Source: a virus
Strand: one strand, 5' to 3'
DNA: 64,000 bases
Virus record (IMG/VR): IMGVR_UViG_3300044648_000427
In this document: positions 40,707-40,891 of the stretch, in pieces
Layout: each line of letters begins with the position of its first letter
Numbering within the stretch: the first letter of the stretch is position 1
Translations under genes and position numbers: made by a program
The notes under the pieces: model-generated
Database searches by the model: none
What the model was told of the DNA's origin: nothing
What the model saw: only the letters and a program-made list of their open reading frames with translations

Positions 40707-40891
40707 CGTCATAGAATAAAAGAAAAAAGAACGATTTCACAGAATAATTATTGTAACTGACTTCATAGAATAGATCAATTCCTAATAAAATTTCACAGAA
40801 TATTATAAAGTGGTTTCACAGAATAATAATAGTTCGTTTCACAGAATATCGAGGTCTGGTTTCACAGAGTTTAATAGTATTTCATAGAATA
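40707..40891 (+). repeat. array of 12-bp repeats TTTCAYAGAATA with 8-18 nt unique spacers
   Basis: Copies at 40735, 40761, 40791, 40814, 40837, 40860, 40880 plus a partial copy near 40707. Confidence 0.85.

Follow-up and report, generated by a model that had tools for sequence, protein, structure and literature searches.

The question raised by the IMG/VR virus record IMGVR_UViG_3300044648_000427 is what a row of short direct repeats does between a gene for the nuclease TnpB and the head operon of this archaeal virus. The record was analysed as one stretch of 64,000 nucleotides with a G+C content of 30.5% (hereafter the window), and the repeats occupy its positions 40708–40891 on the plus strand. 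An earlier note, made from the letters of the window, had offered two readings of this region, namely a proto-array giving multiple short guides or processing sites for TnpB, and operators or iterons controlling the head operon. The reading favoured here, to which about an even chance is given, is that the array may be an iterated, hairpin-forming module from the 3′ end of the TnpB guide RNA (omega RNA), the last copy of which would set the adjoining viral flank as a guide against sibling viruses lacking tnpB.

The array consists of eight direct copies of a 12-mer starting at 40708, 40735, 40761, 40791, 40814, 40837, 40860 and 40880, in which TTTCAY (the putative 3′ strand of an RNA stem) is followed by AGAATA (the putative tail). 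Four copies (40735, 40791, 40814 and 40837) are identical at all 12 positions and read TTTCACAGAATA, while the last copy at 40880, which ends at 40891, reads TTTCATAGAATA. The copy at 40761 differs in its first base (CTTCATAGAATA), that at 40860 has two changes towards its 3′ end (TTTCACAGAGTT) and the one at 40708 is partial (GTCATAGAATA); six of the eight are exact over 11 bases. The spacers between them are each unique and measure, in order, 15/16, 14, 18, 11, 11, 11 and 8 nt, giving a period of 20–30 nt with three units at an identical 23-bp period. A pattern check of the window agreed with the repeat coordinates and spacings listed in the earlier note, and its figure of about 90 bp between the tnpB stop codon (40614–40616) and the array was measured as 91 bp. 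The 11-mer TTCAYAGAATA has six exact matches, all inside 156 bp, and no exact copy was found outside the array on either strand of the 64-kb window. When up to one mismatch was allowed, 17 matches were obtained against 8.5 ± 3 in shuffled sequences, and 7 of the 17 were inside the array.

The three 11-nt spacers agree with one another at just 3–5 of 11 positions, which is the level of random A/T-rich sequence. The repeats match at 12 of 12 positions, whereas spacers of equal length resemble one another no more than random sequence does, and this contrast favours constraint on the repeat. Identical repeats with dissimilar spacers between them are not what simple decay of a duplicated 23-bp unit would leave behind. 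Either the repeat would be under selection, or units would have been added singly with new spacers, the second being an alternative without a proposed mechanism.

The origin of the array was approached through the relatives of the virus, whose capsid proteins share 99, 89 and 71% identity with that of the window and whose contigs keep the gene order without tnpB. Between the small minus-strand gene and the head gene, three of their loci (L001–L003) have 81 bp and a fourth (L004) has 73 bp, as compared with 1552 bp in the window; the 99% relative, which is known from its gene table alone, has 77 bp. No copy of the repeat motif was found in the relatives' loci L001–L007. In a by-eye alignment of the window with L001, the similarity extends up to the word TAGT at 39419–39422 and resumes at the same word on the right (40892–40895), which is either a 4-bp duplication or microhomology. 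The flanks on the two sides measure 40 versus 42 nt and 39 versus 39 nt in the window and L001, respectively. The insertion so delimited spans 1469 bp (±4 bp; 39423–40891, plus strand) and is made up of a leader of 21 bp containing GGAGG, the tnpB gene and 275 bp of 3′ sequence with the array; neither an inverted repeat at its left end nor a copy of the motif near 39423 was found. The final base of the insertion (40891) is also that of the last repeat, which is directly followed by the right flank TAGTTCCCTTATTCC... (40892–40908, plus strand), which is identical to L001 5603–5619 at 17 of 17 positions and is the putative guide-encoding and target sequence.

Since the relatives without tnpB have a gap of only 73–81 bp and no copy of the motif, the alignment indicates that tnpB and the entire array arrived together in one insertion. 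The earlier note had proposed asking whether the array persists in relatives without tnpB; it does not, which goes against the operator reading. The head operon therefore did not have the repeats as operators or iterons ancestrally, and in that sense the second reading is unsupported. The window was present base for base in several soil metagenome runs, and one further locus (L103) is 100% identical to it. No empty-site joint occurred in the contigs of four soil runs, which held the filled form alone, identical to the window. The spacers were invariant across the runs and L103, but all of these represent one identical strain.

The gene inserted with the array (39444–40616, plus strand; GTG start) encodes a TnpB of 390 aa that matched Pfam PF07282 (3.6e-18) and phrog_506 (1e-37). 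Structures of ISDra2 TnpB were matched at 9e-12 by an alignment spanning RuvC-II/III and the zinc ribbon. The RuvC residues D179, E264 and D353 and the cysteines of the zinc ribbon occupy columns that are invariant when the protein is aligned with ten homologues of the clade described below, which indicates that the catalytic residues are intact and that the protein has the D-E-D triad and zinc ribbon of a TnpB/omega RNA system. The profile matches and the catalytic columns bear out the statement of the earlier note that an intact TnpB precedes the array. The closest proteins found, in searches that included no exhaustive profile search, were 38–43% identical and were encoded on Nitrososphaeria-type contigs, one of them labelled Nitrosotalea; by these similarities, the viral TnpB is assigned to a multi-copy Nitrososphaeria clade. 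This clade is present in 40 of 301 sampled Nitrososphaeria genomes, often in many copies, and no transposase or tnpA was seen beside its tnpB genes in the gene tables of about 50 loci.

In one genome (G154), the end sequence of the clade was matched 62 times, and the 20 end pairs fetched from it (L160–L179) delimit 16 tnpB-only elements of 1.29 kb (1286–1289 bp) and four gene-less derivatives of 358–497 bp. These elements have perfect 24-bp terminal inverted repeats, 14 of the 20 are flanked by 8-bp target duplications, and a partner transposase sharing these ends was not seen. The pattern shows a large TnpB clade of ammonia-oxidising archaea that moves with inverted repeats and target duplications, unlike textbook IS200/IS605 elements. 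It also differs from the IS607 mechanism. In the left flanks of L160–L179, the three bases 5′ of the 8-bp duplication were TTG or TTA in 7 of the 14 copies, a word that might serve the TnpB proteins of this clade as target-adjacent motif. Elements of the tnpB-only type of the clade were also seen at L140–L145.

The right ends of the clade elements were examined for a guide RNA. In about 45 of 52 loci the right end reads CTT(G/C)ACAGAACC, and copies within a genome diverge directly after it, as was also the case for all 20 elements of the one genome. This terminal motif has two halves, CTT(G/C)AC and AGAACC. When the last 150 nt of 29 non-redundant clade right ends were aligned and analysed with RNAalifold, two stems were obtained with compensatory changes in 10 of 13 pairs. 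Stem 1 is long-range and joins GCTTGCA with TGCAAGC, and stem 2 joins GTTGAG, located just past a conserved GATG-AAGCAA block, with CTTGAC of the terminal motif. The many G-U pairs in stem 2 point to a structure formed in RNA, and the tail AGAACC is single-stranded and invariant. The predicted shape is that expected of an omega RNA, with a scaffold in the 3′ end of the gene, a guide-adjacent stem, a short tail and the flank as guide.

A covariance model (R1) built from these 29 right ends matched the window over its full length at 40525–40674 on the plus strand (16.7 bits, E = 5e-4), whereas the next match in the window had an E value of 0.3. The matched region comprises an omega-RNA-like scaffold and the first terminal-like word, and its stem 1 is kept by compensatory changes that pair CCC/CCA (40562–40568) with UGG/GGG (40603–40610). 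Because R1 matches here and the last repeat ends at the junction, the viral locus is predicted to hold a scaffold that overlaps the 3′ end of tnpB and ends at the element boundary, as an omega RNA does.

The repeat itself was found to resemble the terminal module of this RNA. Its first half, TTTCAC, is the exact complement of GTGAAA at 40613–40618, a word within the putative anti-repeat 1, GTGAAAT (40613–40619, plus strand), which overlaps the tnpB stop codon and to which R1 aligns the 5′ strand of stem 2. The common repeat variant, a change of C to T at position 6 in three copies, keeps a G-U pair with it. TTTCAC followed by AGAATA has the same two-part layout as the clade terminus, the tail shares AGAA with that of the clade, and the terminus of the G154 subfamily, CTTCACAGAACC, has nine contiguous bases in common with the repeat. 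The register also agrees with the junction, which was mapped independently: here, as in the clade, the final base of the motif is that of the element. Given the complementarity of the stem together with this register and the position of the junction, the sequence comparison supports derivation of the array from the TnpB guide RNA, with the repeat homologous to the 3′ terminal module of the clade omega RNA. The joint chance of these coincidences is about 1e-4, which is a rough hand estimate and not a computed value.

Two further anti-repeat-like words, both TGTGGAAT (40634–40641 and 40649–40656, plus strand), can form 8 bp with ATTTCACA, including one G-U pair, so that complementarity to the repeat occurs at three words (40613, 40634 and 40649) over 6–8 bp each. 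The earlier note had taken the AATGTGGAATA words at 40632 and 40647 for direct copies decaying back towards the gene; the words are present, but their reading as decayed direct repeats was dropped after the duplex and fold analysis favoured anti-repeat-like complements. In the minimum-energy fold of 40525–40915, one long imperfect hairpin is formed, in which repeat 6 pairs with the word at 40613, repeat 5 with that at 40634 and repeat 4 with that at 40649. The duplex between 40610–40690 and 40730–40895 has an energy of −30.3 kcal/mol compared with −19.1 ± 3.5 in shuffled sequences, a value that 1 in 300 shuffles reaches. Forcing GTGAAA onto the last repeat costs 3.4 kcal/mol over the optimum and leaves the inner hairpin intact, and in the fold so modelled the closed stem and its tail would be followed at once by the viral flank, which is the arrangement of the clade.

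These features suggest the following course of events. The array region and tnpB would be read into one transcript, probably from the promoter of the head operon, which the insertion has divided, and this transcript would fold into a long imperfect hairpin in place of the short variable hairpin of the clade. Closing of GTGAAA on the last repeat would expose the viral flank beginning with TAGTTCCCTTATTCC as guide, with which TnpB could cut sibling genomes carrying the uninterrupted site, in homing or interference. The occupied site would be spared because the repeat tail occupies the position of the target-adjacent motif, and the internal repeats would be structural parts or products of end duplication and not independent guides. 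Transcription, folding in vivo, guide use and cutting are all inferred here from the arrangement of the sequence.

Several observations weigh against this reading. The terminal CC of the clade is invariant (39 of 39 loci) and is TA in the window, and because of this CC a weight matrix of the clade terminus does not rank the window repeats highly. More than one loose extra terminal motif occurred in none of 41 other clade loci, so the array has no precedent in the family. A stem closed on the last repeat needs a loop of 261 nt, compared with 0–63 nt in the clade, and, taken as a whole, the region folds no more stably than shuffled sequences do (z = −1.4). Lacking both a left-end repeat and an 8-bp duplication, the window copy did not arrive by the normal transposition of the clade. 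The sequence 5′ of the empty site, TCGT, does not fit the TTR bias seen beside clade insertions.

The repeats could instead be a true multi-guide mini-array, or proto-CRISPR (clustered regularly interspaced short palindromic repeats), in which each repeat pairs with an anti-repeat of the scaffold in cis or after processing and the spacers of 8–18 nt serve as short guides, for example for binding or silencing host or competitor DNA. The homology described above agrees with this, since the repeat corresponds to the 3′ stem strand and tail, with which the scaffold borders on the guide. The three anti-repeat-like words, the conserved repeats with unique spacers and the polarity of the array, which ends at the flank, also fit. 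The duplex of repeat and anti-repeat, however, is just 6–8 bp, and we know of no guide as short as the 8–11-nt spacers that supports TnpB cutting. When protospacers for the six longer spacers were searched for in the window, L001, L004 and L005, the counts were at or below shuffled expectation, so that spacer matches in the window or relatives were not above chance. Variation of the spacers was not seen either, all runs being of one identical strain, and no adaptation genes were seen, although no search was aimed at them. The core of the proto-array idea in the earlier note, an array arising from the TnpB guide RNA, is thus retained on the repeat homology and the stem complementarity at the stop codon, while the use of the spacers as separate guides is hypothetical. 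A minimal natural TnpB array, with one scaffold, three anti-repeats, eight 12-nt terminal repeats and very short guides against host or rival DNA, is judged improbable. If true, it would be an earlier or smaller stage from transposon to CRISPR than any described, and it would grow by units added at the junction with the flank.

Intermediates between transposon and CRISPR (TranC) are known from literature cited in PMC13565253, and this too favours a multi-guide array. TranC and minimal type V CRISPR-Cas systems (Cas12f, Cas12n), in which the omega RNA is divided between a trans-activating CRISPR RNA and a CRISPR RNA, resemble the viral locus in guide-proximal repeats, a putative anti-repeat by the nuclease gene and unique spacers. 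Against these systems, the viral locus has a repeat of 12 nt, spacers of 8–18 nt and a duplex of 6–8 bp, and no spacer targets were found in the four sequences searched. A CRISPR array in the sense of size, with repeats and spacers of about 20 nt or more, was rejected on the same dimensions; for comparison, CRISPR-like arrays seen behind distant TnpB-like genes of other viral contigs have a period of about 61–62 nt.

At the level of DNA, the repeats might be subterminal binding sites for an unknown transposase that recognises the terminal inverted repeats of the clade, as at the ends of IS607, hAT, Tn7 and Mu, and a slim chance is left to this explanation. The repeat does correspond to the outer 12 bp of the right inverted repeat in a clade that moves with 24-bp inverted repeats and 8-bp duplications, and each unit contains an imperfect TTC-N3-GAA dyad. 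Ends of IS607-family elements likewise have short direct repeats with variable spacing near one end of an element that carries tnpB (PMC6188088). The window copy, however, without a left end or a motif near 39423, is not a complete substrate; the clade members have one terminal motif per end and no arrays; no transposase gene lies nearby; and the clade-invariant terminal CC is missing. The locus differs from IS607 ends also in having no serine recombinase gene, no GG termini and no left-end repeats, and in that the repeat is the terminus itself and part of a predicted RNA stem. An IS607-type end was rejected in view of the lack of tnpA in about 50 clade loci, the junction word TAGT and the lack of a left-end motif.

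The position of the insertion allows another explanation, in which the A/T-rich repeat-spacer units, exapted for expression, would now drive the head operon or set its timing, either as weak archaeal promoters stacked one after another or as sites for a factor. The head module begins with a gene of 642 aa (40931–42859, plus strand), after which come a cement/scaffold-like gene and then the major capsid gene, in the order found in all relatives. The TATA-like box TTTATATG of the ancestral head-operon promoter (39402–39409, plus strand) lies 17 nt before the insertion and 35 nt before the tnpB start, and its counterpart in L001, TATTTATT at 5582–5589, lies 21 nt before the shared word TAGTTC and about 60 nt before the head-gene start. 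The insertion splits this box, a presumptive promoter, from the start region of the head operon. Because the insertion sits 17 nt after the box and tnpB is preceded by GGGAGGG, tnpB is probably read from the head-operon promoter; for the head gene, either read-through or a new start then becomes necessary. The TATA-like word TTTAATAG at 40870–40877 on the plus strand, formed by spacer 7 and the degenerate end of repeat 7, could be a substitute promoter for the head gene, as its distance of 22 nt from the conserved TAGTTC matches the ancestral 21 nt. Several units, moreover, consist of AGAATA followed by a TATA-like run. One promoter would suffice, however, the motif was found upstream of no other gene of the window, and the complementarity in the stop region and the homology to the clade terminus would be left unexplained, so that exapted signals are considered unlikely as an account of the array. 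A run of five T residues at 40915–40919, 11 nt before the ATG of the head gene, is absent from L001. A functionless stack of dead termini, made by slippage or repeated duplication of the right end, would agree with the three units at a shared 23-bp period and with the uniqueness of the array within the clade, but is unlikely, as neutral decay would not yield four repeats identical at 12 of 12 positions with spacers alike at 3–5 of 11.

Returning to the iterated omega RNA module, the locus was compared with known systems. It shares with TnpB/omega RNA systems of the tnpB-only IS1341 type of IS200/IS605 a compact RuvC nuclease with zinc ribbon, a single gene without a transposase, a scaffold that overlaps the 3′ end of the gene, a terminus at the right boundary and, putatively, use of the flank as guide. 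It differs in carrying eight terminal modules where these systems have one, and in lacking a left end. The IS200/IS605 family is described as having no terminal inverted repeats and no target duplication (PMC13565253), a description that excludes the 24-bp terminal inverted repeats and 8-bp target duplications of the clade. A peel-and-paste element of the IS200/IS605 kind, whose ends would be hairpins beside a fixed target of 4–5 nt, was rejected in view of these inverted repeats, the 8-bp duplications in 14 of 20 elements and the window copy without a left end. Free-standing homing endonuclease genes of phages are similar in having a nuclease between conserved genes, an uninterrupted site in the siblings and a likely target in the sequence beside the insertion; in the viral locus recognition would be by RNA, and cutting and homing are putative. 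TIGR and VIPR arrays, with periods of 18 nt and 5 nt and Tas or Vipr effectors (10.64898/2026.10.21.760802), are comparable as short-period arrays of viral DNA with very short variable segments, and were rejected on the period (20–30 nt here) and the TnpB neighbour; Tas and Vipr effector genes were not searched for.

Duplication and splitting of the omega RNA at its guide-proximal end are regarded as the start of the change from a one-guide transposon nuclease to a CRISPR effector fed by an array. In this natural virus, the guide-proximal end alone appears to have been multiplied eight-fold, with its partner strand kept at the stop codon and the empty site held by the siblings. The array would be an unusual variant of the step by which TnpB-type nucleases gain CRISPR-like arrays, a proposal so far unproven. 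At about 1.5 kb, the locus offers a compact test system for how much scaffold is needed beside the guide, for alternative pairings and guides, and for the spread of TnpB by itself among archaeal viruses.

The wider searches gave little that resembles the locus. Pattern scans for two motif copies 6–20 nt apart returned 0 viral contigs, 9 genomes and 80 metagenome contigs, and none of these loci encoded relatives of the TnpB or the virus; they were treated as unrelated, many being 21-nt tandem repeats from one sample set. At L020–L099, many of them contigs of Ga0105051–55, the same 12-mer occurs scattered and as pairs with a 21-nt period, as an unrelated dispersed repeat. A DNA search of a phage collection with 39100–43400 gave no match, Rfam gave nothing relevant, no tRNAs were found, and single-protein locus scans of viral contigs with the capsid protein and TnpB returned nothing.

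An alignment-based scan of viral contigs returned only distant TnpB/Cas12-like genes, and five of these have CRISPR-like arrays with a 61–62-nt period. On these IMG/VR contigs (L181, L182, L186, L206 and L209), distant TnpB/Cas12-like genes are followed by 3–5 repeats, and they are probably small type V CRISPR loci. Two loci of the Nitrososphaeria clade showed further arrangements of tnpB and its terminus. At L101 (4053–4203), the called TnpB gene ends early and the conserved 3′ block and terminal motif lie past its stop, so that this copy is probably frameshifted; a tRNA-like sequence follows. L100 carries two diverged TnpB genes of the clade (645–1811 and 3001–4125) that are 1.2 kb apart, each with its own terminal motif.
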